Source of the DNA: a virus
Taxonomy: Duplodnaviria > Caudoviricetes
Length of the DNA stretch: 64,000 nt
Virus record (IMG/VR): IMGVR_UViG_3300032038_000059
Coordinates: 9,297-73,296 of that record
Direction: 5' to 3' (one strand)
Below are positions 1,462 to 48,389 of the stretch, piece after piece. Under the pieces are notes generated by a model that saw nothing but the letters and a program-made list of their open reading frames with translations, did not search any database and had not been told where the DNA came from. The position numbers were made by a program, and so were the translations under genes. Each line of letters begins with the position of its first letter. The stretch's first letter is position 1.

Positions 1462-1704
1462 TTACTTGAAAACCTCCCGACTTTTATTAAATCTGGTGAT
1501 CTTCTCGCACCTTCCGTAAAAATCAGATATGGCAGGTGGTCTGGAATTTTCATGAATATATTCCGTAACAGCCTTATTGAGTACGGTATGCTCAAATTTA
1601 CCAAGATGCTTGTACCATACATCCGCAAGATTCTCGGTTACTGTGAATGAAGGATATGCTCCGTCAATTTCACAGAGTATTGAAATAAATTCTTCTTTCG
1701 TCAT
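1462..1704 (-). CDS. Helicase loader/inhibitor (SPP1 G39P-like)
   Basis: MTKEEFISILCEIDGAYP...VWYKHL...PPAISD pattern; ATGA overlap with rep; lies between rep and helicase. Confidence 0.7.
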   Translation of the reverse strand: MTKEEFISILCEIDGAYPSFTVTENLADVWYKHLGKFEHTVLNKAVTEYIHENSRPPAISDFYGRCEKITRFNKSREVFK

Positions 1705-2471
1705 TTCCTTGCCCAACTTTCCAAATCTAGTTTTGTTCCCGAACTCTGCCTCCTGTTTCTACTATTCCACCCAGAAACAGCCATATGCCAATTTGACATT
1801 TTGTTCTTTCCGACCATCCAATTCTTACTTCCGTAAAAACTAACGAAGCTTTCAGGATCTATATTATCTAAATTCTTTTCTCTACAATATTCCGTAACCT
1901 CTTCAACTGTTGGAGGTATGAATCTCTTTATAGATTTATCTGTAGTATTAGTATTTATATCTATAGCATCTGTATTATCTATAGATTCATTATTAGATAA
2001 AGAATTAGATAAAGATATAGATATAGAAGGGGTGACATCACTTGTGATATCACCCGTGATATCACTTTTTTCTTCCAGTGCCAGTTGTCTCTGTTTTTCA
2101 CGGTATTTCTTTTGAGATTCCCGGTGCTTTTGCTGAAGTTCTTCAAGACGGTCACCATTTTGATACTTCAGCCAATTTGATACCATGTAGATATTGTCAA
2201 CAACCTCTATCATGTTAAGTTGCTGAAATATCTTCATCGCTCTCTGAACAACTCCGATATCCATATCGAACCGCTGTGCCAACATCTCATCAGTGTACGG
2301 AATCTCCCTTGTAAGCATCAGGAATCCGTTTTCATTGCACTTACCTGCCAAACAAAGAAGTTTAACCCATGCCAATTGTATGTTATTGCTATCAGGTAGA
2401 GTTTTAATGGCATCAAACTTCTCATCATCAAAAACGTTGACGGTAAGCTTTATCCATTTAATTTCGGACAT
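1701..2471 (-). CDS. Phage replisome organizer / replication initiator
   Basis: N-terminal IKWIKL..VFDDEK...WVKLLCLAGK (Phage_rep_org_N-like), low-complexity linker, C-terminal FIPPTVEEV...IDPE.F..FY..KNW domain. Confidence 0.9.
   Translation of the reverse strand: MSEIKWIKLTVNVFDDEKFDAIKTLPDSNNIQLAWVKLLCLAGKCNENGFLMLTREIPYTDEMLAQRFDMDIGVVQRAMKIFQQLNMIEVVDNIYMVSNWLKYQNGDRLEELQQKHRESQKKYREKQRQLALEEKSDITGDITSDVTPSISISLSNSLSNNESIDNTDAIDINTNTTDKSIKRFIPPTVEEVTEYCREKNLDNIDPESFVSFYGSKNWMVGKNKMSNWHMAVSGWNSRNRRQSSGTKLDLESWARK
1990..2065. promoter_or_regulatory. Putative replication origin inside rep (iterons plus AT-rich tract)
   Basis: Palindromic GTGAYATCAC at 2032, 2044 and 2056 (12-bp period) next to TTAGATAAAG/ATATAG repeats. 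Confidence 0.6.
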
Positions 2472-2481
2472 TTTTAACTCC

Positions 2482-2751
2482 TTAAAATTTCCCCTGATAA
2501 ATCAAAACGTTTTTCTTATGGGCAACAACCATCTGGTGAACGAATTTCTCTAATTCGTCATTGCTATGCATATAAAAATACTGTGGAGATCTATACATAT
2601 TCTCTGAATCGAAATCATCGATGTTATCGCTCACTGCGACTGTGTATTTGATTTCCTTTTCCATGCTAGTCCTTCCCATCGAGCACCCTATAGACGATAT
2701 ATGTTGTTCTATTTTATTTTGTCGTATTGTAGAGAGTAGTATAATTTGCAT
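2482..2751 (-). CDS. Hypothetical protein
   Basis: ORF co-oriented in operon; start uncertain. Confidence 0.5.
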   Translation of the reverse strand: MQIILLSTIRQNKIEQHISSIGCSMGRTSMEKEIKYTVAVSDNIDDFDSENMYRSPQYFYMHSNDELEKFVHQMVVAHKKNVLIYQGKF

Positions 2752-2816
2752 AACTGTTCTGAACTATGCTTTTTTTGAACGGCATACACCGTCTACAAGA
2801 TGCTCGATGCCTTTTG

Positions 2817-3416
2817 TTAGGTTAATATTTCCAGAATTTTTTTCCCGGCATTCCTAGTGGAGACAAAAACGAAGCTACATCCATACTTTTGTTCCATAGA
2901 GTAACAAGCTTTTTGCAGAACACTTCCTCGTGTGGCTTTTGGATAAGCTTGTTTTCCAGATCTAAAAATCCACAATCTCGGATTAACCCACTTATGAAGA
3001 TCTTTAAGATCCGTAATCGTATAATTTTCTATGGTTCTTCCATTTCTGGAATAGACAATTTCGTAATCATTTTGAACCAAAATGTAAAGTTTGATGCCGT
3101 TATTCTGAGCCAGAATGCATTCATCCCTGAATCGTTGATGTTGTTGCCCACAAATATCTGAAACTAACTCCTGAATCGAGAACTTTGAATCTACACAGAC
3201 ATTGTACGTGCCAAGGAAATCCATCTTCTTCGGTTCAATACCTCTGGCTGTCTTTCGATCCAAAACGTCCTGAACTTTATCGTTCATCAGGACGTAATCA
3301 CCGACAGGTAACGGAACACGGATGATTTCATATCCATGCGATTCCCAGTATCGATGTTTAACACTGTGCTTGTCTTCCTTCTGAGCCTTATCTTCAAGAA
3401 TGACCACCGCTCTCAC
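2817..3416 (-). CDS. ERCC4-domain nuclease (putative resolvase)
   Basis: LED...LPVGDY...VCVDSKFSIQELV.DI...RF.DE pattern. Confidence 0.75.
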   Translation of the reverse strand: MRAVVILEDKAQKEDKHSVKHRYWESHGYEIIRVPLPVGDYVLMNDKVQDVLDRKTARGIEPKKMDFLGTYNVCVDSKFSIQELVSDICGQQHQRFRDECILAQNNGIKLYILVQNDYEIVYSRNGRTIENYTITDLKDLHKWVNPRLWIFRSGKQAYPKATRGSVLQKACYSMEQKYGCSFVFVSTRNAGKKILEILT

Positions 3417-3502
3417 CTCCCTTCGTTTTAAAGCCCAAATTTGAATTTTTACCCCCTACCCTATAGATTGTAGGGTAAGGAGTGTTTCGTTGAAATTTGA
3501 CC

Positions 3503-3835
3503 TCAATCTTGTGATTCCTTGTGGGCGTGAACCGAATTCCTGATTCGCTCTGCCATCAACTCACGCTCCTTGTCCGAAAATTCACGGTCTACGATATTTA
3601 CTTTGATCGCTTTGACCGGGAGTGTGGCGATCAGCACACCATTCTTTTCGGATTTGATTTTCACATCATCCGGGAACTTCTCTGCAAGTCTTTTTACCTT
3701 GGTGATGTATTTCACTTGTGTAAAATTAACAGTGCAATTCTCATCACCATTCGTCCAGTAGATAGCATTTTCCCTGAGATCACCACTATCCGTAAAATTG
3801 ATTTCATCATTACTGACTTTTTCGAATTCCGTCAT
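3503..3835 (-). CDS. Conserved hypothetical phage protein
   Basis: ORF with RBS (AGGAGA); ENAIYW...TVNFTQ motif. Confidence 0.7.
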   Translation of the reverse strand: MTEFEKVSNDEINFTDSGDLRENAIYWTNGDENCTVNFTQVKYITKVKRLAEKFPDDVKIKSEKNGVLIATLPVKAIKVNIVDREFSDKERELMAERIRNSVHAHKESQD

Positions 3836-3849
3836 TTTATCTCCTCACA

Positions 3850-4272
3850 TCAATTGAAAGGTAATGATTCCCCGTCTAAGCTATTCTCGATCTGCATGAA
3901 GTCAGCATCTCCTGTCGAAGGTGCAGATGCAGGTTTAGTAGTCGCATTCCCAGACGCAGCTTTGCTCTCTGCGAATTCAATATCAGATGCAATGATGGTG
4001 ATCCGCTGATTATTTTTACCATCTTTATCAGTCCAACGATCCTGCTGGAGTCTCCCGGATACCTCAACCTTCACTCCTTTATCGAGATACTTCTCAGCGA
4101 ACTTTGCTAATCCGTTAAAGCAACTGACCTCGAAAAAATCTGTATCGTATTTCCCATCTTTGTTTTTGTACCTGCGATTGCAAGCGATGCCAAACTGAGC
4201 GATAGTTGTTTCACCTGAAGTACGCATATCAGGTTTGCGAGTCAATCTTCCCGTGATATTTACTGAATTCAA
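3850..4272 (-). CDS. ssb: Single-stranded DNA-binding protein
   Basis: MNSVNITGRLTRKPD OB-fold start, acidic C-terminal tail ending LPFN. Confidence 0.95.
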   Translation of the reverse strand: MNSVNITGRLTRKPDMRTSGETTIAQFGIACNRRYKNKDGKYDTDFFEVSCFNGLAKFAEKYLDKGVKVEVSGRLQQDRWTDKDGKNNQRITIIASDIEFAESKAASGNATTKPASAPSTGDADFMQIENSLDGESLPFN

Positions 4273-4285
4273 CTTATGTCCTCCC

Positions 4286-5002
4286 TTATAGATCTATACT
4301 CTCACCCCTGTGGGCGATGTTAACATTTACATTGTCACCGCAGACTTCTTTAAGTTCACTCAGGATTTTTTTCTCGTCTGCATACTTGTCAGAAAGATGA
4401 CAAGCGATGACATTTTTACATTTGTCAGAAATCGACTTTTCCAAGAAGTTTTTGACAACTTCCAAACTACTGTGACCGCGCAACCTGTGTTCCCTAGCTT
4501 CGTCATTCAGATCGATGTCTTCTGAGTGATTTACGGCTATCAGGAAATGATTTATTTTCCATGTTTTGACGGTAACTGGAATGTATTCGAAGTCGGTAAC
4601 ATAAAGTAATCTCTCGCCATTATCAAACTCGATGATGTACCCGGAATTCGGAGTATCTTCATGTGGCACTGGAATCGGGATGACTTTATAGTGACCGATG
4701 ATTCGAGTTATCTTGTTTGATGACAGACTCCGCACATATTCTCCAGTTATTATTTTGAGGTTTTTTGCAGTTCTATCTTCTGCATATACCGGGATGCCGT
4801 TTTTATTGAAATGGCGATAATACTGTGCGTGATCGCCATGTTCATGAGTTATCAGGCAAGCGTCTATGGCACTCACCCGAAACCCACAAGCAATTTGTAC
4901 ATCTTTCCATTTCATCCCGGCATCAAGTGCGAGATAATGACCGTCATTTTCGATTACATAGCAGTTACCGTTGCTAGAACTCCCTAGAACATGAATTTTC
5001 AT
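4286..5002 (-). CDS. MBL-fold metallo-hydrolase (YycJ-like); true start at 5002
   Basis: MKIHVLGSSSNGNCY, LITHEHGDHA (HxHxDH), PHED, RGHSS, ACHLS. Confidence 0.9.
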   Translation of the reverse strand: MKIHVLGSSSNGNCYVIENDGHYLALDAGMKWKDVQIACGFRVSAIDACLITHEHGDHAQYYRHFNKNGIPVYAEDRTAKNLKIITGEYVRSLSSNKITRIIGHYKVIPIPVPHEDTPNSGYIIEFDNGERLLYVTDFEYIPVTVKTWKINHFLIAVNHSEDIDLNDEAREHRLRGHSSLEVVKNFLEKSISDKCKNVIACHLSDKYADEKKILSELKEVCGDNVNVNIAHRGESIDL

Positions 5003-5834
5003 TTTTATTTTCCTTCCTTGCAGACCAGTAGAAGCCACCTGCTTTATAACGAAAATTGCTATATGCCGCCCTTGCAATGTTTCCTTTGTTGATTGATGTA
5101 ATTTTATGTGCTTCCAAAAATCCATTAAACTCATTCACTATATTCATGTTGGTATCGTATTGCGTGACCTTTATTGTTTTTGATTTTTCTTTTGCATATG
5201 AATCATTACTAGAAGCATACTTGCTAATCAATTCCCTTTGAAGGCAACCACAGCTTTTTGATCTTCCAGAAGTTAAAGACCAAGACTTTACCTTCTTTTC
5301 ATTTCCACAGTCACACCTACAATTCCACACTGCACATCTTTCATATCCGGCAAAAGATAATACAGTCCATCTTCCAAAACGTCTCCCGGTTAAGTCAGTT
5401 GTGTTATATCCGCTTGCCACTACTGGCTCATCTATTGCTCTGTTTTTCAATAGACGTTTTTGCAATGTTTTTTCATTTATTTCCAATAGTTCCGATAATT
5501 GAGCGAGAGTATATTTCTTTCCCTTATATTCAATTATTCTGTTGTTCCTCTTGTTTGACTGTTGTTGCTTGTTTGTAATCCACCTGCAATTAGATGGGCA
5601 GTAGCAGTTATTTACATCTATTCTGTCTAAAGTTAAGTTATCATTGTAACCGTTGTCTAAAGCCCAGTCTCTAAAAGTTATGTAAGAGTTCTTCCACTCA
5701 TCACATACAACTATGCCCCTACCACCGTAATTACCATATTTTCTTCCTTTCTCGTAATAGCACCTAGCTTTCATATTTAGCCAAGATTGGTATAATCTTG
5801 TATTGCTTTCTCCGTGCCATTCTCTTTTCTTCAT
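4974..5834 (-). CDS. Free-standing HNH homing-endonuclease-like protein with CDCG and NUMOD1-like domains
   Basis: RLYQSWLNMKARC...YGGRGIVVCDEW...TLDRIDVN..YCPSNCRW; DLTGRRFGRWTV...WNCRCDCG...SKSCGC; C-terminal VTQYD...KAGGFYW. Confidence 0.8.
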   Translation of the reverse strand: MKKREWHGESNTRLYQSWLNMKARCYYEKGRKYGNYGGRGIVVCDEWKNSYITFRDWALDNGYNDNLTLDRIDVNNCYCPSNCRWITNKQQQSNKRNNRIIEYKGKKYTLAQLSELLEINEKTLQKRLLKNRAIDEPVVASGYNTTDLTGRRFGRWTVLSFAGYERCAVWNCRCDCGNEKKVKSWSLTSGRSKSCGCLQRELISKYASSNDSYAKEKSKTIKVTQYDTNMNIVNEFNGFLEAHKITSINKGNIARAAYSNFRYKAGGFYWSARKENKNENSCSREF

Positions 5835-5854
5835 TTAAATAAACTCCATAACCA

Positions 5855-6775
5855 TCACGATATTTCCTCTGCATCTGCTTCGATGACAAGTTCTTCGGCA
5901 TTCGCCTTTTCTGCAATTTCAGTTTCTGCTGTTTCCGCAGGATCTTCAGGAAGATTATCTACGTACTTAACTTCCCCGGATTCATTCAGAACACCCATGT
6001 CAGATGTAAATGCACGTTGCAGATCAATGCTCATAACGCCCCATTTGGAAATTAACTGGCGAAGCATTGTTTTCTCAGCCATTCCGTCAAAATCTTTGTA
6101 CCAGAAGGATGAATAAAGCCATTCGTCTTTCGCAGGATATTTCCCGTCCAGATAATCCTGATACGAAACTTTCGGATATTTACCTCCCTTCGCATTAAGA
6201 CTGAATGCACTGCTGTATCGATCAGCATGAGCAAGCATCTTTTCTTTGCTCCAGTAGATTTCTTTCTTGAATCCGTTGATAAGTTCGAAAGCTGCGTAAT
6301 ACCCAACAACCGGGAGAGATTCCCTTAATTCCATATCCAAAATTGGTTCAAAAACATATTCTTCCGTAATTGGGTTGAATGACTTCAACTCTCCTTTTTT
6401 GACAGCAGATGCTACGATCTTTCTGTACTGACCGCTACGAATCGCAAGCTGCCGATAACCTTTACTCCCAAGCTGAAACTGGGCTTCAGTTACACCATTT
6501 TTATTTTTGTACGGAACGAGAAAAAATTGTCCCAATTGCGGTGAAGGAGATAACTTCAATGACTCTCCAAGCAACGCTGCGGAGAAAATGGAACTGTTTG
6601 TACACTCTGCAAGCGACTTATTTGCCTGTACAGCAGACACAATTGATGCAATAAAAGATTGCGTATTTTTCTCTCCAACCACACCTGCGATATTCTGTCT
6701 GACCGCAGGATTTGCACAAAACGTAGCAAACCCCACTTTCTGGGGTTGTGTATTAGTTACTGATGTCGATGCCAT
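5855..6775 (-). CDS. recT: RecT-family single-strand annealing recombinase
   Basis: LGESLKLSPSPQLGQFFLVPY, AQFQLGSKGYRQLAIRSGQY, MAEKTMLRQL. Confidence 0.95.
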   Translation of the reverse strand: MASTSVTNTQPQKVGFATFCANPAVRQNIAGVVGEKNTQSFIASIVSAVQANKSLAECTNSSIFSAALLGESLKLSPSPQLGQFFLVPYKNKNGVTEAQFQLGSKGYRQLAIRSGQYRKIVASAVKKGELKSFNPITEEYVFEPILDMELRESLPVVGYYAAFELINGFKKEIYWSKEKMLAHADRYSSAFSLNAKGGKYPKVSYQDYLDGKYPAKDEWLYSSFWYKDFDGMAEKTMLRQLISKWGVMSIDLQRAFTSDMGVLNESGEVKYVDNLPEDPAETAETEIAEKANAEELVIEADAEEIS

Positions 6776-6798
6776 ATAATCTCCTTTCTTAAATGTGT

Positions 6799-7233
6799 AT
6801 CATGCACCTAGAAGATGATTTGAATTATGCTGTTCTGTAGTGTTCTTTTGTGATAAAGGCTATGCTAGACAGTTCATTCAAACCATCATTTAGATGCACG
6901 ATGTTATTGTCCTGTCATTTCTTGCGGTTTCATGTTATGATAGTTATTATGTTTTCCTATTATGTAATGGATGCTTCATGCACCCGGAAAACAACTCGTA
7001 TTGTAATATGCTATTTTGTCGTGATTTGACCTGTGGTAAATTAAAGTGTCAGATCGTGTCGTAAACAACACAAGTTGTCATCTAGATGCATGAAAGCCCG
7101 TGTGCTTAAGAATGACTATAAAAGCCATGTCTTGCGATATATTGTTCTGTCCTGTCGTGTTCCGCGCTGTTGTGTCGTTTAGTATGCTATTGTTTGTTCT
7201 TATGACTCTTACAGCCACACCTCAACACACGGG
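6799..7233 (-). ncRNA. Pentamer-repeat guide-like array, downstream part (4 tracts: 6816-6875, 6903-6972, 6997-7071, 7128-7192)
   Basis: 5-nt periodicity T(G/A)TNN on + strand (NN-AYA on the gene strand), 12-15 units per tract, flanked by inverted repeats such as CCCGTGTG/CACACGGG. Confidence 0.85.
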
Positions 7234-7244
7234 CGAAATATTAT

Positions 7245-7877
7245 TTATGCTTCAACATTTGATACATGGAATCTTCCGTAACCAGATGTTCTTCCAGAAC
7301 CAATTCCACTACCGAAACCTGCGAGGTTAATCACATTTACAATCTGCTCAATTCCGTAAACATTCTCCGTATACTTAATAGTGAACGTTGCGCTCCACCC
7401 GGAAAAACGATTAAGGTGAACCAGAACAGGTGCTCCACGCTTCGGAGACATCAGCTTCTCGTCAATAAAGTGATCCGTAAACTTAATCGGGATAAGCCCA
7501 CCAGTTGCAACGATATTCAGTGCAGAATCCATTTTTGTGGAGTAAGTATCAATTCCGTTTCTGACAACTGCTGCGAGAATAGCTTTCTTCAGCCCGAATG
7601 CGGTGATGCATGGAGCATTATTCTGTAAAGCATTGATAAGTGCTTCTTCCGTAAATTCTTTCGGATAGCCATCTCTCCAGTGCATAGCCGTAATAATGCA
7701 TTCCCATTCATTCGGCTTCTCTGTTGACTTCGCCTTGTCTTTGCGCTGATCTGTAAGAGCACGAATTGTCGGTTCGTTCATTTTATTCAGAACCAGATCG
7801 CCATCGCCCTCAATTGTAATTATTGCAGTATTAACCTTAATCTCCTTTAATTCGATTGCCTGTTCCTTCTTTGCCAT
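7245..7877 (-). CDS. Small Cas7/RAMP-like protein (VIPR-like effector candidate)
   Basis: N-terminal ITIEGDGDLVLN strand, F.GWSATFTIKY strand, C-terminal glycine-rich loop AGFGSGIGSGRTSGYGRFHV typical of RAMP folds; sits between pentamer arrays. Confidence 0.8.
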   Translation of the reverse strand: MAKKEQAIELKEIKVNTAIITIEGDGDLVLNKMNEPTIRALTDQRKDKAKSTEKPNEWECIITAMHWRDGYPKEFTEEALINALQNNAPCITAFGLKKAILAAVVRNGIDTYSTKMDSALNIVATGGLIPIKFTDHFIDEKLMSPKRGAPVLVHLNRFSGWSATFTIKYTENVYGIEQIVNVINLAGFGSGIGSGRTSGYGRFHVSNVEA

Positions 7878-7942
7878 AATTTTTCTCCTTTTGTTTTTAA
7901 TTAATTAATTGATATTGTGTTGTGTTGTTCGCGAATAAACAC

Positions 7943-8718
7943 AATTACAGACACTTCTGAAATCCTATGTAGTAAGCTGTCCTATATTATGCTTTATTGA
8001 ATTAAGCTGACCTTTCCTTTTGATTTCCTATCCTGATATGTCCTACTACGGGAGAAATGCCCGTAATTCTATCTATTCGCTTTATACGCTTAATTAACGG
8101 AGTAAGGTATGCTGTAGTATGCTTATTTATGCTGTTGCGTCATGATCTAAACTGTCATAACATACGGATTACTCCGTTAACTAAATGCATATATCATCCG
8201 CTCAACAAGCAACACTGTCTTCGGCTATGCTGAGTTATAGTGCGTTGAATTGACCTGTATTTTCCTACGCTTGGCAATGTTGCCAGTAGAACGGACGATA
8301 ATTTATTTTGTTCTTAATTGAAATCTAGGATTTTATCATTTAGTGTTTTGATTTGATATAGAGCAAATATGCGCTCAACTAGCGATACGAACTTTTGCAA
8401 TGTCCTATACTGAATTTGTCTGCGCTAAAGTATTCTTCGCTGTTGTATGACTATCATGAAATATCGTTAGCTATTTCGGCTCATATCGCCGGGTGAACGC
8501 ATATTGTTTTATACTGTTTTATATTGTTAAAACGTATTCCATAGAAAGCTGTTCTTTCCTGTAATATTGTTGAGCAATTGGCTCGGAAGATGATGCAATG
8601 TTATGTTTTGTGATATGCAGTATTATCATGCTGTTTGTTGTTGCGTCATTCTCTTTGGGATTCTATCTTGTTCTACATGGTGCAAAATCTATTACACCAT
8701 CATCAGAACCAACCGCTC
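7943..8718 (-). ncRNA. Pentamer-repeat guide-like array, upstream part (7 tracts: 7968-8048, 8103-8167, 8216-8275, 8299-8368, 8386-8461, 8500-8569, 8599-8678)
   Basis: Strict 5-nt phase, e.g. tgtct tcggc tatgc tgagt tatag tgcgt tgaat tgacc tgtat tttcc tacgc ttggc; stems such as TTAACGGAGTAA/TTACTCCGTTAA; most stem mismatches become G-U pairs on the minus strand. Confidence 0.88.
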
Positions 8719-8726
8719 AGATACAT

Positions 8727-9221
8727 TTATGAAACTCTTAAAAACTCATCAATAGCTTCAATCACAGAATCAAGTTCCGTTAATCGCTGATATCTATTTT
8801 TGATACCTTCAAGTTCAATCTTTGCCCGATCCAGAAGCTTTTCGTATTCATCTTTATTCTCATAAAAGAACTTCACAGGTTTGTATGTACCTGTTCTAGA
8901 ACTGTCTGCTTCAACTAAGCGAAAAACAGTTTTCTCTTCTTCTTTAGTTTCAGGGTCTTCCCGAATAAGGACGAAATTCTTTACAAGACGTTGAGCCTGA
9001 ATCACACGATACTTTTCAGAAGCTACTTTGTTGTCCCATTCAAAGTAGTTATGCATCGCAGACTTCTTGTTTCTGGCGAGATCTACGATATCTGAAAGCG
9101 TTCTACTTTCACCGTCTCCGTAGATTTCATCGTAAGTCTTCTGCGGATCAATCCCTTTCATAATTCCCGGAAGTTTCCACCCGGCTTTCTGTGAGAAACT
9201 CCACACCGTATTTCCTTCCAT
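8727..9221 (-). CDS. Conserved phage protein next to the RAMP/array locus (candidate accessory factor)
   Basis: MHNYFEWDNKVASEKYRVIQAQRLV motif; immediately upstream of the array. Confidence 0.7.
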   Translation of the reverse strand: MEGNTVWSFSQKAGWKLPGIMKGIDPQKTYDEIYGDGESRTLSDIVDLARNKKSAMHNYFEWDNKVASEKYRVIQAQRLVKNFVLIREDPETKEEEKTVFRLVEADSSRTGTYKPVKFFYENKDEYEKLLDRAKIELEGIKNRYQRLTELDSVIEAIDEFLRVS

Positions 9222-9234
9222 TACTCTCTCCCCC

Positions 9235-11142
9235 TTAGTTAACAGTCAGTTCCTTATCATCTGAAACCTTAAGCAACACCATCTGCCCATCCATCTCAGG
9301 AAGGTTATCTGAAGATAAACATTCTGCATTATCAATGAAAACCGGGAGTTCTACTCCGTACAGCTTTCTGAACGTCTTGATAATCTGAAGACCTGCCGTA
9401 ATACGGTGACCACTATTCAAAGATGAATAAGGAACTCCGTTGTAAGTAATGGAGCAAGTTTCTTTAATGCCACCATTGATCTGGTTTTCAAATAATTTGA
9501 ACTCCAGTCCATCAAACTGAGAATTAATCAACGAAGATAATGCCTTGACGTAGTTCTCCAGTACGAAAAGCTTTCTCTCCGCATCAGAGATTCGCTGTGC
9601 AACACTCTTAAGTTCTTCCGTTTTCGCATCGATATCAGCTTCGATCTGCTGATTAATGCCGACCTGCGCCAAACTCTGCTGCACGGCAGAAATATTAGCC
9701 TTTATCTCAGAGCGTTTCTGCTCTAACTGAAATTTCTGATTCTGAAGTTCCGGGAGATCAACCATCTCTCCGTAAAGTTCCTGAATCTGCTTTTCCAGTT
9801 CGACATATTCAGGGAGATCTTTTCCGTCAGATATTGGCTGAGATTCGGCAGTTTTCAAAGTAGCCGAAACTTCTTCAAGTCTCGTCTTTAAGTTTTCAAA
9901 GGTCTTTTTCTGATTCTCCAGAGATGATTCAGATTCTGCGATCTGCTTCTCCAGTTCGCGAGTCTGAAGATAAAGTTCATTACCCTTATTCTTAGCGTTC
10001 TCAGTTTCATCTTTGTGTCTCTTCTCCCAATCAACCTTGATCTTTTCCAGATCCGTAGTGGGAAGCTTCTGACCACATCTTGGACAATACGATTCATTTT
10101 CTGGGAACTTCTCTTCCAACATCTTCTTGTACAGCTTCAGAAGATTGTTAACCTGTTCCTGCTTAGTTTTAAGACCATTCTTCTTCCGATTAATGTTGTT
10201 TTCTTCAGAAGTTAGCGAAAACTCTGCTATCTGGTATTCTCTCTGCACTGCATCAACAGCACTTCTGGCTTCTCGGACATCGGCACTACGTTTATCATTA
10301 GCAGCCAAGATTATTACTTTCTGCTGTGATTTGAGTTCTGTGATCTTCGATTCAATCGCTGAATTATTTACTTTGGAAACCTTAAAGATCTCTTCGTTTA
10401 CGGAATCGAGATCTAAATTGAGGGAGGATTCCTTTTCTCTTAACGTCTTCTCATCTACCTCGCGTATCTGTCCGTGAAGAGTATTGATTTCCACTGGCAG
10501 CTGTTCTTGACGCTTAGTCAGTTCTTTCTTTTCCAGAGAATATTTCTTCTTTACGGCATCAGGCGATTCCTGAAGAATGTCCGCAGATATCAAATCAAAG
10601 TAATCAACGTTCTTCCCCACTTCTTCCGGGGAGATATTGATCAGGCTCAGAAGTAACTTTCTCTGTTCTTTCCAATCCAAATTCGGAAACGTCATCGGAT
10701 TTGAGAGAATCTGGAAGACGTTTTCATCTACTATTGATGCTATGAAGTCCTCATACTCTCTAGCGGATTTCGGGAAGCCATTAATGAGATAGCTGTCCTT
10801 ATTTCCTGAGAATTCCTGTTCTTCCTGACCGCGCTTTTTCACCCATTTTTCCTCTTGGATGCGCTGAAGCGTTGTCTCTGTTCCATCAATCTCAGCCACA
10901 AGCGTGACGGATATTTTGGTGTGGTGAACCTTGTCACCATTCGAATCCAGTTCTCTGATCTCGAACTTCGAGTTGCCGTGACTGTCCGTTCCGAAGAATA
11001 ACCACCAGATGCTATCAATTACGGTTGTTTTCCCGGTTGCATTACGTCCAGAAATAACATTTGCAAGATCGTTGAAATCTATCTGTAAATTCCTTATGCC
11101 CTTGAAATTTTCAAAGGAAAGAGACTTAAATTTGACGTTCAT
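9235..11142 (-). CDS. SMC/SbcC-like AAA ATPase with coiled coil and CxxC hook
   Basis: FENFKGI, Walker A GRNATGKTT, YCPRCGQ, signature LNSGHR, Walker B PVFIDNAE. Confidence 0.9.
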   Translation of the reverse strand: MNVKFKSLSFENFKGIRNLQIDFNDLANVISGRNATGKTTVIDSIWWLFFGTDSHGNSKFEIRELDSNGDKVHHTKISVTLVAEIDGTETTLQRIQEEKWVKKRGQEEQEFSGNKDSYLINGFPKSAREYEDFIASIVDENVFQILSNPMTFPNLDWKEQRKLLLSLINISPEEVGKNVDYFDLISADILQESPDAVKKKYSLEKKELTKRQEQLPVEINTLHGQIREVDEKTLREKESSLNLDLDSVNEEIFKVSKVNNSAIESKITELKSQQKVIILAANDKRSADVREARSAVDAVQREYQIAEFSLTSEENNINRKKNGLKTKQEQVNNLLKLYKKMLEEKFPENESYCPRCGQKLPTTDLEKIKVDWEKRHKDETENAKNKGNELYLQTRELEKQIAESESSLENQKKTFENLKTRLEEVSATLKTAESQPISDGKDLPEYVELEKQIQELYGEMVDLPELQNQKFQLEQKRSEIKANISAVQQSLAQVGINQQIEADIDAKTEELKSVAQRISDAERKLFVLENYVKALSSLINSQFDGLEFKLFENQINGGIKETCSITYNGVPYSSLNSGHRITAGLQIIKTFRKLYGVELPVFIDNAECLSSDNLPEMDGQMVLLKVSDDKELTVN

Positions 11143-11399
11143 GTATCCTCCTCAACATTTAAGATTTTTCGAAGCACTTCGATCTTCACGGAGTCCGAAA
11201 TGCTGTAAATATCAATAGCCAAGATATTCTTGATGCATTCCATCTGCGCTTGCATCTCAGCGTTTTCCCTGATAAGATAAGAGATGTCTTTATTTATCTG
11301 GGCATCTGAGAGTATTGCCGTACTCATATCAGATGTCCTTCTCTTTTCCCCGGCGTAGATTTCTCCGTTCTTATATATCGCCAATGTCAATCCTCCCAA
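11139..11399 (-). CDS. Hypothetical protein
   Basis: Overlapping ORF in operon. Confidence 0.55.
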   Translation of the reverse strand: MGGLTLAIYKNGEIYAGEKRRTSDMSTAILSDAQINKDISYLIRENAEMQAQMECIKNILAIDIYSISDSVKIEVLRKILNVEEDT

Positions 11400-11680
11400 A
11401 ACAACTTAATCAATGCATAGATGCCAAGGTAACCACCTGCAATTGCGAGAAGCACGATAGATGTACTTGTGATTCTGTCTGCAATCTCGATCTCCCCGGC
11501 AACGCCGACAATCAGAAACAGTGCTGTAATGAGAAGCACTCCACCGATAAACTCGCCTATCGACATGAAGTCACCTTCGTAAGCTTCCAGAAATAATTTC
11601 TTTGCTTTCGTCATGAAAGCTTTTTTCATATTTTCGCGCTTAACCATCTTGCGCTCTTTCTTAAGTTCCTCGATACTCAT
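11387..11680 (-). CDS. Small membrane protein
   Basis: Two hydrophobic segments. Confidence 0.65.
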   Translation of the reverse strand: MSIEELKKERKMVKRENMKKAFMTKAKKLFLEAYEGDFMSIGEFIGGVLLITALFLIVGVAGEIEIADRITSTSIVLLAIAGGYLGIYALIKLFWED

Positions 11681-11910
11681 TGCTCTCTCCCCTTAATAAT
11701 TATTTCAATCCCCAGATACTTCCCCATTTCCCGGAGATCACCCAATTTGACGTTATCGATATCTGCAAGGCGTTTACTCAGCATCGGTTGCGAAATCCGC
11801 AGCTTCTTGGCGAGATCTTTCTGCTTGTAACGTCCGATCATCGCTTTCCTAAAACACAATTCGATATCTTCAGTTGCCCGATCGTAATCAGATAATTTCA
11901 CTTTCGGCAT
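11677..11910 (-). CDS. Small HTH DNA-binding protein
   Basis: KQKDLAKKLRISQPMLSKRL helix-turn-helix. Confidence 0.75.
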   Translation of the reverse strand: MPKVKLSDYDRATEDIELCFRKAMIGRYKQKDLAKKLRISQPMLSKRLADIDNVKLGDLREMGKYLGIEIIIKGREQ

Positions 11911-12689
11911 TATGTATGTCCGCAGTACCCGTTATCTTCTCTATTGAGAAAGCGATTCACGAAATACTGTTGTCCCTTCCCGGTCACCATAACCGTTTTT
12001 GTGATCCTTACAGACCCGTCTGGATTATTAACAGTACGTTCCTTGATCTTGAATAGCTCTCGTTCCATTGCATACTGTGTAGGAAGGTTCCTTGCCTCGC
12101 CTTTCTTCATGAGGTATCCATTATTACGAAACCAGTCGAATAATCGGTTCTGTCCTATTTCAATGCCGTTCCCCTTGAGGATCTTGGCAAGTTGTCCGAT
12201 TAGGATTGCATCGTCAGATATAGAAACTGCATCAGCGAAAATCTCTTTAGGTTTCATCCTGTGGTTATCTTCAAGGAGAAGACCGTTCTGCTTTTCAAGG
12301 CGCTCCGCTTCTTCTGCTTTATCAGCTAAAGCCCGAAGTGCTTCTGCATATGTCTGAGGAAGCTGATAACCACCAGTTTTACGAATGGACGGAAGGACTT
12401 CTGATGTAACCCAATGCTTAAACCGTTTCGCAGAATCCAATTTGCTTGAGAGAACTAAACTATAAAGACCAGATTCGTTAATAAGCCATCCACCTCTCTG
12501 CCCTAAACTCGATAACGATTCGTTATTGAGTTTGTCATCGTCATCAACATGATCCGCAAGTGCTTTACTCGGATTCTGGTATCCAAGTGCGACCGCAACG
12601 TCTTTGCCAACTAACCACGGTTCATTATCAACCATCACTGTCCTGACCGATCCAAATTCTGAGTTTTCAAAGATCTTGATGTCGTTCAT
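11910..12689 (-). CDS. Phage antirepressor (BRO-N plus ANT/KilAC)
   Basis: IFENSEFGSVRTV...PWLVGKDVA...INESGLYSL...FKHWVTSEVLPSIRKTG; MKPKEIFADAV...GQNRLF...VTGKGQQYF. Confidence 0.95.
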   Translation of the reverse strand: MNDIKIFENSEFGSVRTVMVDNEPWLVGKDVAVALGYQNPSKALADHVDDDDKLNNESLSSLGQRGGWLINESGLYSLVLSSKLDSAKRFKHWVTSEVLPSIRKTGGYQLPQTYAEALRALADKAEEAERLEKQNGLLLEDNHRMKPKEIFADAVSISDDAILIGQLAKILKGNGIEIGQNRLFDWFRNNGYLMKKGEARNLPTQYAMERELFKIKERTVNNPDGSVRITKTVMVTGKGQQYFVNRFLNREDNGYCGHT

Positions 12690-47866: not shown

Positions 47867-47938
47867 CAGCCCTAGTCAGGATCGAACTGACGCATCTGGC
47901 AGTCAAAGTGCCATACCTTACCACTTGGTTATAGGGCA
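47867..47938 (-). tRNA. tRNA-Gln(TTG)
   Basis: Full cloverleaf: GCCCTA/TAGGGC acceptor, TGGCA-CTTTGAC-TGCCA anticodon arm, GTCAG-TTCGATC-CTGAC T arm. Confidence 0.88.
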
Positions 47939-48277: not shown

Positions 48278-48389
48278 TGGAAGCGGAAGGATTCGAACCT
48301 TCGTTTTCTGATGATGGGTCAGACTGTTGCCATTGACATACTCTAACAAGCACATCACTCTTGTGCCATTTGTCTACACTTACACTCCC
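48278..48389 (-). ncRNA. tRNA-like RNA (CAT loop) with a ~38-nt insertion between the D and anticodon arms
   Basis: GGGAGTG/CGCTTCC acceptor, TCTGA-CCCATCA-TCAGA arm, GAAGG-TTCGAAT-CCTTC T arm. Confidence 0.55.

Follow-up and report, generated by a model that had tools for sequence, protein, structure and literature searches.

The window analysed here, a stretch of 64,000 nucleotides belonging to a 73-kb virus record, carries a vipr gene (7245..7877, minus strand) encoding a 210-aa single-domain RAMP protein. This gene is flanked on both sides by non-coding gaps, 6776-7244 and 7878-8726, that hold at least six tracts of repeated pentamers in all. The upstream gap constitutes a vrRNA array of about seven tracts (7878..8726, minus strand), most of them in long stem-closed loops, and the downstream gap an array of about four (6776..7244, minus strand). 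The upstream gap folds far better than its shuffled versions (z = -8.5). The gene vipr sits in a phage replication/recombination module that comprises Ant, an SbcC-like ATPase, RecT, an MBL hydrolase, SSB, ERCC4 and a replisome organiser. The related loci L021-L028 share a common gene order: ATPase, 164-aa gene, array, vipr, array and RecT.

In these relatives, the 164-aa gene (here 8727..9221, minus strand; phrog_15946) is syntenic and always located upstream of the array. Pfam, PHROGs and the Atlas provide no function for it; in the Atlas, the closest clusters comprise nothing but hypothetical proteins of viruses, one cluster bearing the automatic name DUF4494. It is a possible accessory (vap-like) gene. 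Between the RecT and MBL hydrolase genes lies an HNH endonuclease ORF (phrog_374, NUMOD1; 4974-5834, minus strand) that overlaps the latter gene by 160 nt. Since the MBL gene directly follows RecT in the relatives L023 and L024, this ORF looks like a homing-endonuclease insertion. The MBL-fold hydrolase itself (4286-5134, minus strand) has homologues in related loci that show a weak match to PF23023 (Anti-Pycsar_Apyc1), and may be a cyclic-nucleotide-degrading anti-defence enzyme. A scan of the window at Rfam gathering thresholds returned two tRNA genes only (47867-47938 and 48278-48347, minus strand), with neither a known RNA family nor a hammerhead at the locus. The promoter and terminator scan was uninformative (4 promoter-like sites versus 7.7 expected).

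VIPR systems were described only in 2026, and the characterised ones are Gram-negative and of the GGY type (10.64898/2026.04.26.720920). They associate an ancestral RAMP of about 20 kDa (Vipr) with vrRNAs of 9-16 pentamers, in which GGY alternates with a hypervariable dinucleotide (NN); these dinucleotides read double-stranded DNA two bases at a time and pass over the next nucleotide, which is usually at the wobble position (10.64898/2026.04.26.720920). Cryo-EM showed one protomer per repeat, with GGY sequestered (10.64898/2026.04.26.720927).

The 210-aa protein has a sub-threshold RAMP match in Pfam. When a profile of 63 homologues was compared with the PDB, it gave a single match, the SUSP1 Vipr (36pp_D, E 1.1e-14), with a nearly full-length alignment (profile 21-211, chain 5-188). 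The AF2 model (pLDDT 96.6) has Csm3, Cmr4 and Cas7 as top Foldseek matches, consistent with a Cas7-like fold. In the pairwise alignment, the G-loop reads GIGSGR here versus GVGDWR in SUSP1 Vipr: Ser194 and Gly195 align with D177 and W178, and Arg196 with R179. In SUSP1, D177 and W178 contact the two guanines of the fixed triplet (10.64898/2026.04.26.720920; 10.64898/2026.04.26.720927), and the presence of Ser-Gly instead of Asp-Trp would fit a changed triplet. Because the profile matches only the SUSP1 Vipr structure, the locus is, judged by homology, a VIPR system with a non-GGY fixed triplet. The Vipr family is large (2293 matches at E <=1e-3). The only relative among species genomes is found in an Oscillospiraceae MAG, and tblastn detected no Vipr homologue in a collection of 50,697 phages. 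The related loci L009-L012 carry NN-ACA or NN-AYA tracts on the vipr strand.

The tract under study (8216..8275, minus strand) is 60 bases long and consists of 12 NN-W-Y-A pentamers. Read from 8275 to 8216 on the minus strand, they are GCCAA, GCGTA, GGAAA, ATACA, GGTCA, ATTCA, ACGCA, CTATA, ACTCA, GCATA, GCCGA and AGACA, which gives the NN series GC GC GG AT GG AT AC CT AC GC GC AG. These are exactly the dinucleotides that the first-pass annotation had listed, and their decoding as NNx codons into A-A-G-I/M-G-I/M-T-L-T-A-A-S/R is arithmetically correct. The range 8216-8280 that it had given for the tract holds for 8216-8275; 8276-8280 belong to the 5' arm of a stem. Position statistics computed on 128 pentamers from ten tracts of the locus gave entropies of 1.98, 1.98, 1.60, 1.70 and 0.43 bits for positions 1 to 5. 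Hence, positions 1-2, which are near-random, are taken as the variable dinucleotide, given their entropy of 1.98 bits versus the constraint on positions 3-5. Position 3 is A in 56% and T in 25% of the units (A/T 81%), position 4 is C in 45% and T in 33% (C/T 78%), and A occupies position 5 in 94%. The fixed part is therefore W-Y-A, without a conserved G.

Over the 64-kb window, period-5 T runs of 11-13 units (plus strand) are found only at 7958, 8216 and 8396, and the three longest runs (13, 12 and 11 units) all lie within the gap 7878-8726. All runs of at least 9 units are located within 5150-8446, and outside this interval the 64 kb contain just four runs of 8. Since long period-5 runs are confined to this region, the periodicity of the tract is not due to chance. 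The HNH ORF also contains runs of 9 (5150-5190) and 8 (5510-5545), which probably reflect base composition rather than vrRNA tracts.

In the minimum free energy fold of 8186-8305, the tract is predicted to be closed by a stem of about 24 bp (-37.8 kcal/mol), formed by 8300-8276 (5' arm, 8276..8300, minus strand) with 8215-8192 (3' arm, 8192..8215, minus strand). The G of pentamer 1 and the final CA of pentamer 12 are also predicted to pair. No pseudoknot tail was recognised 3' of the tract; this predicted stem, to which both flanks contribute, closes it instead.

The dinucleotide series was converted into a target pattern, GCNGCNGGNATNGGNATNACNCTNACNGCNGCNAG, made of 12 NN separated by a one-nucleotide skip (24 specified bases), and searched for in IMG/VR viral contigs. 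The skip-one rule that the first-pass annotation had assumed is that published for VIPR (10.64898/2026.04.26.720920). Eight exact 24/24 matches were found, representing seven different site sequences, with the differences at wobble bases, and since they lie in homologous genes they are not independent events. All eight are in frame in long ORFs, at SNF2 helicase motif V (AAG[IM]GITLTAAS), and the skipped base is codon position 3 in every one, as had been supposed. Some 20 residues downstream of each site lies motif VI, which reads QAEDRxHRIGQ or nearly so. The four ORFs that were scanned (L001, L002, L005 and L008) carry SNF2-rel_dom (PF00176, E 1e-33 to 1e-39) and Helicase_C (PF00271). In L001, residues 616-627 correspond to the site; they lie within Helicase_C (551-652), and QAEDRxHRIGQ comes after them. 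The two helicases compared with PHROGs (L001 and L005) belong to phrog_62, DNA helicase. The first-pass proposal that the guide matches SNF2 motif V is thus borne out by a direct pattern search.

With a probability of 3.6e-15 per position and an assumed collection size of 1e12 positions, about 0.004 exact matches would be expected, i.e. an estimated chance expectation below 0.01. Furthermore, no match was obtained in IMG/VR viral contigs with the dinucleotides in reversed order, with the phase shifted to pentamer positions 2-3, or with a 2-nt skip (skips of 1 and 2 nt being scanned). Two other guides of the array (8450-8396 and 8022-7958) also had no exact match in IMG/VR, which indicates that the background is nil for real guides. 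The five other patterns (22-24 specified bases) gave 0 matches versus 8 for the guide.

A relaxed pattern, with two variable positions (Thr or Ala at residue 1; Leu, Ile or Met at residue 4), retrieved 86 IMG/VR contigs, and all of the 80 that were fetched have in-frame motif V sites. These 80 sites include 47 TAGL, 22 AAGL, 8 AAG[IM] and 3 TAGM. Since TAGL and AAGL predominate, the guide corresponds to a minority variant of the motif and not to its consensus. Synonymous escape, previously considered impossible, is restricted only: Ser (AGY/TCN) and Leu (CTN/TTR) have synonymous codons that differ at read positions, and L018 uses a TCN Ser. The exact targets all come from unassigned environmental contigs, and the relatives of the L005 helicase in the 50,697-phage collection do not exceed 36% identity.

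The host clade was searched, at <=3 mismatches, in 401 genomes of the Oscillospiraceae, the family of the Vipr-bearing MAG. Eight places were found versus three for the backwards control. Six of the eight are SNF2 motif V sites with 21-22/24 matches, and the two others are chance matches in short frames. The TAGLGITLTAAS site of the Oscillospiraceae prophages matches the guide at 22/24. The claim that the target is the helicase of a competitor stands for the location of the exact sites, in SNF2 genes of viral contigs; a common host is not shown for these contigs, and the matches found in Oscillospiraceae (Clostridia) are at 21-22/24. As for the carrier phage, the absence of an SNF2 gene, noticed earlier for the window, extends to the whole 73-kb record, in which no SNF2 domain was detected. 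The best self-match of the gapped pattern in the phage is 16/24.

Two loci with a 98%-identical Vipr have all the guide dinucleotides unchanged (24/24), the sole change in the tract being T to C at a Y position, whereas over the entire array the identity to L021 is 93%. The loci with 89% Vipr identity are devoid of this guide. In L023-L028, which have this level of Vipr identity, 8061-8156 is the only segment of the upstream array that can still be aligned (78-82%), the rest being replaced.

All guides of the locus were scored against 90 SNF2-bearing loci (1.7 Mb, both strands). Guide T4 (8299..8363, minus strand) matches eight SNF2-bearing phage loci at 22-24/26. Seven of these eight matches are in frame, at the N-terminus of an open frame of 70-93 aa (SYNKLWKLLIDKK), and the eighth (L069) lies in a 17-codon frame. 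Both target frames that were scanned (L060:9758-9997 and L029:2829-3083) encode a small regulator with an HTH_26 domain; in the Oscillospiraceae prophage L029 the T4 match is 23/26. Guide T6 (8103..8162, minus strand) has in-frame matches of 19-20/24 (DWMEWQANALAP-like) in five SNF2-bearing phage loci, in homologous open frames of 566-647 aa, four of which have 633-647 aa. The two of these five targets that were scanned (L088:12203-14101 and L103:3115-5031) show only a weak IrrE/Peptidase_M78-like match. Shuffled guides reach at most 17/20.

Of 83 loci with an SNF2 gene, 11 are matched by a second guide no more than a few kb away from the SNF2 site, and two are matched by three guides. Since T4 and T6 also match SNF2-bearing loci, several guides converge on one rival phage type, in line with the published observation that, within a VIPR array, the vrRNAs converge on one competing element. 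Guides T1, T2, T3, T7 and D1-D4 have full-length scores that are not above the shuffled maxima in the fetched SNF2 loci; D1 reaches 18/20 in a sub-window, with no full-length match. The T4 site is absent, at <=3 mismatches, from five contigs with an exact SNF2 site, mostly fragments.

Taken with the observed repeat anatomy and Vipr homology, the control-tested in-frame matches and the convergence of two further guides lead us to propose, with a probability of about 0.85, that the tract is a VIPR guide RNA aimed at SNF2 motif V of rival phages, and that it would silence the helicase operon. Vipr would polymerise along the RNA, one protomer per pentamer, each protomer sequestering the fixed W-Y-A triplet and presenting the two variable bases. 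The 12 dinucleotides would then pair with a DNA strand, every third base being skipped, at the site where the replication module of a rival phage or prophage encodes SNF2 motif V (AAG[IM]GITLTAAS). By analogy with characterised type II systems, an RNP would assemble and target DNA rather than RNA, and its binding would repress transcription of the helicase operon in a co-infecting or resident competitor. One or two mismatched dinucleotides would presumably be tolerated. The carrier phage would be spared, being without an SNF2 gene.

The binding sites of TRAP consist of a triplet and a 2-nt spacer repeated 11-13 times. The tract shares this architecture, and could thus be a protein-binding scaffold only, made of TRAP-like triplets separated by meaningless 2-nt spacers, the SNF2 match being a coincidence. 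Such a coincidence would have to account for eight exact 24-base matches to one protein motif, all in frame, versus none for five other patterns, and for the in-frame matches of two neighbouring tracts on similar contigs; moreover, the protein is a Vipr homologue. This reading therefore retains a negligible probability. A TRAP-like scaffold or DNA iterons had been considered as candidates and were dropped after the SNF2 target matches. SNF2-family helicases also occur in some defence systems and motif V is common across the family, so that the true target might be an SNF2-type gene of the host, such as a defence-system helicase, and the guide an anti-defence device. However, motif V is of the phage type at all six sites of the host family, and so is motif VI wherever the sequence extends far enough to include it. 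In L029 (genome G044), the match that is annotated, the phrog_62 helicase adjoins a phage DNA polymerase and primase, and the exact matches are all in viral contigs. We regard a host target as very improbable, slightly less so than the scaffold.

The same system and target site could also be served by an RNA transcribed from the plus strand, made of T-R-W-NN units and antisense to vipr; the guide would then complement the coding strand and the SNF2 mRNA. The TGH/NN and WGT/NN motifs reported in the accessible part of 10.64898/2026.10.21.760802 fit this plus-strand reading, although the orientation of motifs given there may be arbitrary. The substitution test against L021 is neutral between strands (10 versus 11 pairs kept). 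In contrast, the minus strand carries every gene over about 13 kb around the locus and has the better fold in 7 of 8 units (-293 versus -240 kcal/mol over the 8 units). Gene orientation and folding thus favour transcription from the minus strand, and we consider the plus strand unlikely, though clearly less so than a host target or a scaffold. The double-stranded target site is the same whichever strand is transcribed.

Beyond the guide itself, we tentatively suggest, at slightly less than even odds, that gut Clostridia phages harbor a W-Y-A lineage of VIPR in which the two-read, one-skip code was kept despite changed triplet and G-loop residues, and whose arrays are multi-guide arsenals against the replication module of one rival family. 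The VIPR class and its code are already published, and non-canonical motifs are reported in 10.64898/2026.10.21.760802, without target analysis in the accessible part of that preprint. What is new here is, first, that the targets support the code in a lineage other than GGY. The predicted stem-closed loop architecture would also be new, as set against the texts on the published VIPRs, and so would a helicase catalytic motif as natural target, judged from the main texts. If the reading is correct, a motif V guide would reach many phages (at least 86 IMG/VR contigs at >=22/24) and leave little room for escape. These natural targets would be independent evidence for the two-read, one-skip code in a divergent lineage of gut Clostridia phages, and the 35-bp SNF2 motif V site offers a concrete guide-target pair. 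They would also add a target class, the invariant catalytic motif of a replication helicase, as opposed to a regulator or a recombinase. Furthermore, Ser-Gly in place of the G-reading Asp-Trp offers a possible lead on the selection of the fixed triplet by Vipr proteins.

Among known systems, the model comes structurally closest to the Cas7 backbones of class 1 CRISPR (Csm3, Cmr4 and type VII Cas7; Foldseek E 3e-6 to 1e-4, TM about 0.4-0.5). These share with it the RAMP RRM core, the logic of G-loop and thumb, and the periodic interruption of guide-target pairing; however, sequence identity is 10-14%, and 2 bases out of every 5 nt are read here, as against 5 out of every 6 there. The two gaps of the locus hold only pentamer tracts, with no CRISPR-type repeats or spacers, and none of the ten neighbours scanned in 1701-12689, all replication/recombination genes, is a cas gene. 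TRAP binding sites resemble the tract by their approximately 11 fixed triplets and 2-nt spacers in single-stranded RNA, but the protein is here a RAMP, and the "spacers" carry target information according to the matches.

The type II VIPR systems of SUSP1 and P. fulva share most features with the locus: a phage-borne, single-RRM RAMP of about 20 kDa; long non-coding flanks of vipr; 12 units made of a fixed triplet and a hypervariable NN; a 1-nt skip at the wobble position; and guides that target other mobile elements, spare their carrier and converge on one element. They differ by their GGY triplet, as opposed to W-Y-A here (94% A before NN), and by their targets: the site read here encodes a catalytic motif of a helicase, whereas the main texts of the published VIPR papers name no helicase as a target. 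Compared with SUSP1 more specifically, Ser194/Gly195 replace the G-reading D177/W178, and a predicted stem of about 24 bp formed by both flanks closes the guide loop, whereas the SUSP1 clade has a 3' pseudoknot tail.

The canonical motif GGY, or its variants NNNGG, YNNNG and NNNNG, is thus lacking here. Non-canonical VIPR-like arrays (GAC/NN, CAC/NN, WGT/NN and TGH/NN) were reported in October 2026 in a language-model preprint (10.64898/2026.10.21.760802). According to its accessible part, in which targets and the skip rule are not mentioned, these divergent VIPRs were inferred from periodicity and protein fold. Like the arrays described here, they have a period of 5, about 10 units and a neighbouring Vipr-like fold, as far as that part of the preprint goes. 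The plus-strand reading T-R-W-NN fits their TGH/NN or WGT/NN motifs, and both may belong to the same family. Since W-Y-A fits this non-canonical class as described there, the non-GGY triplet argues for a variant and not against membership of VIPR.
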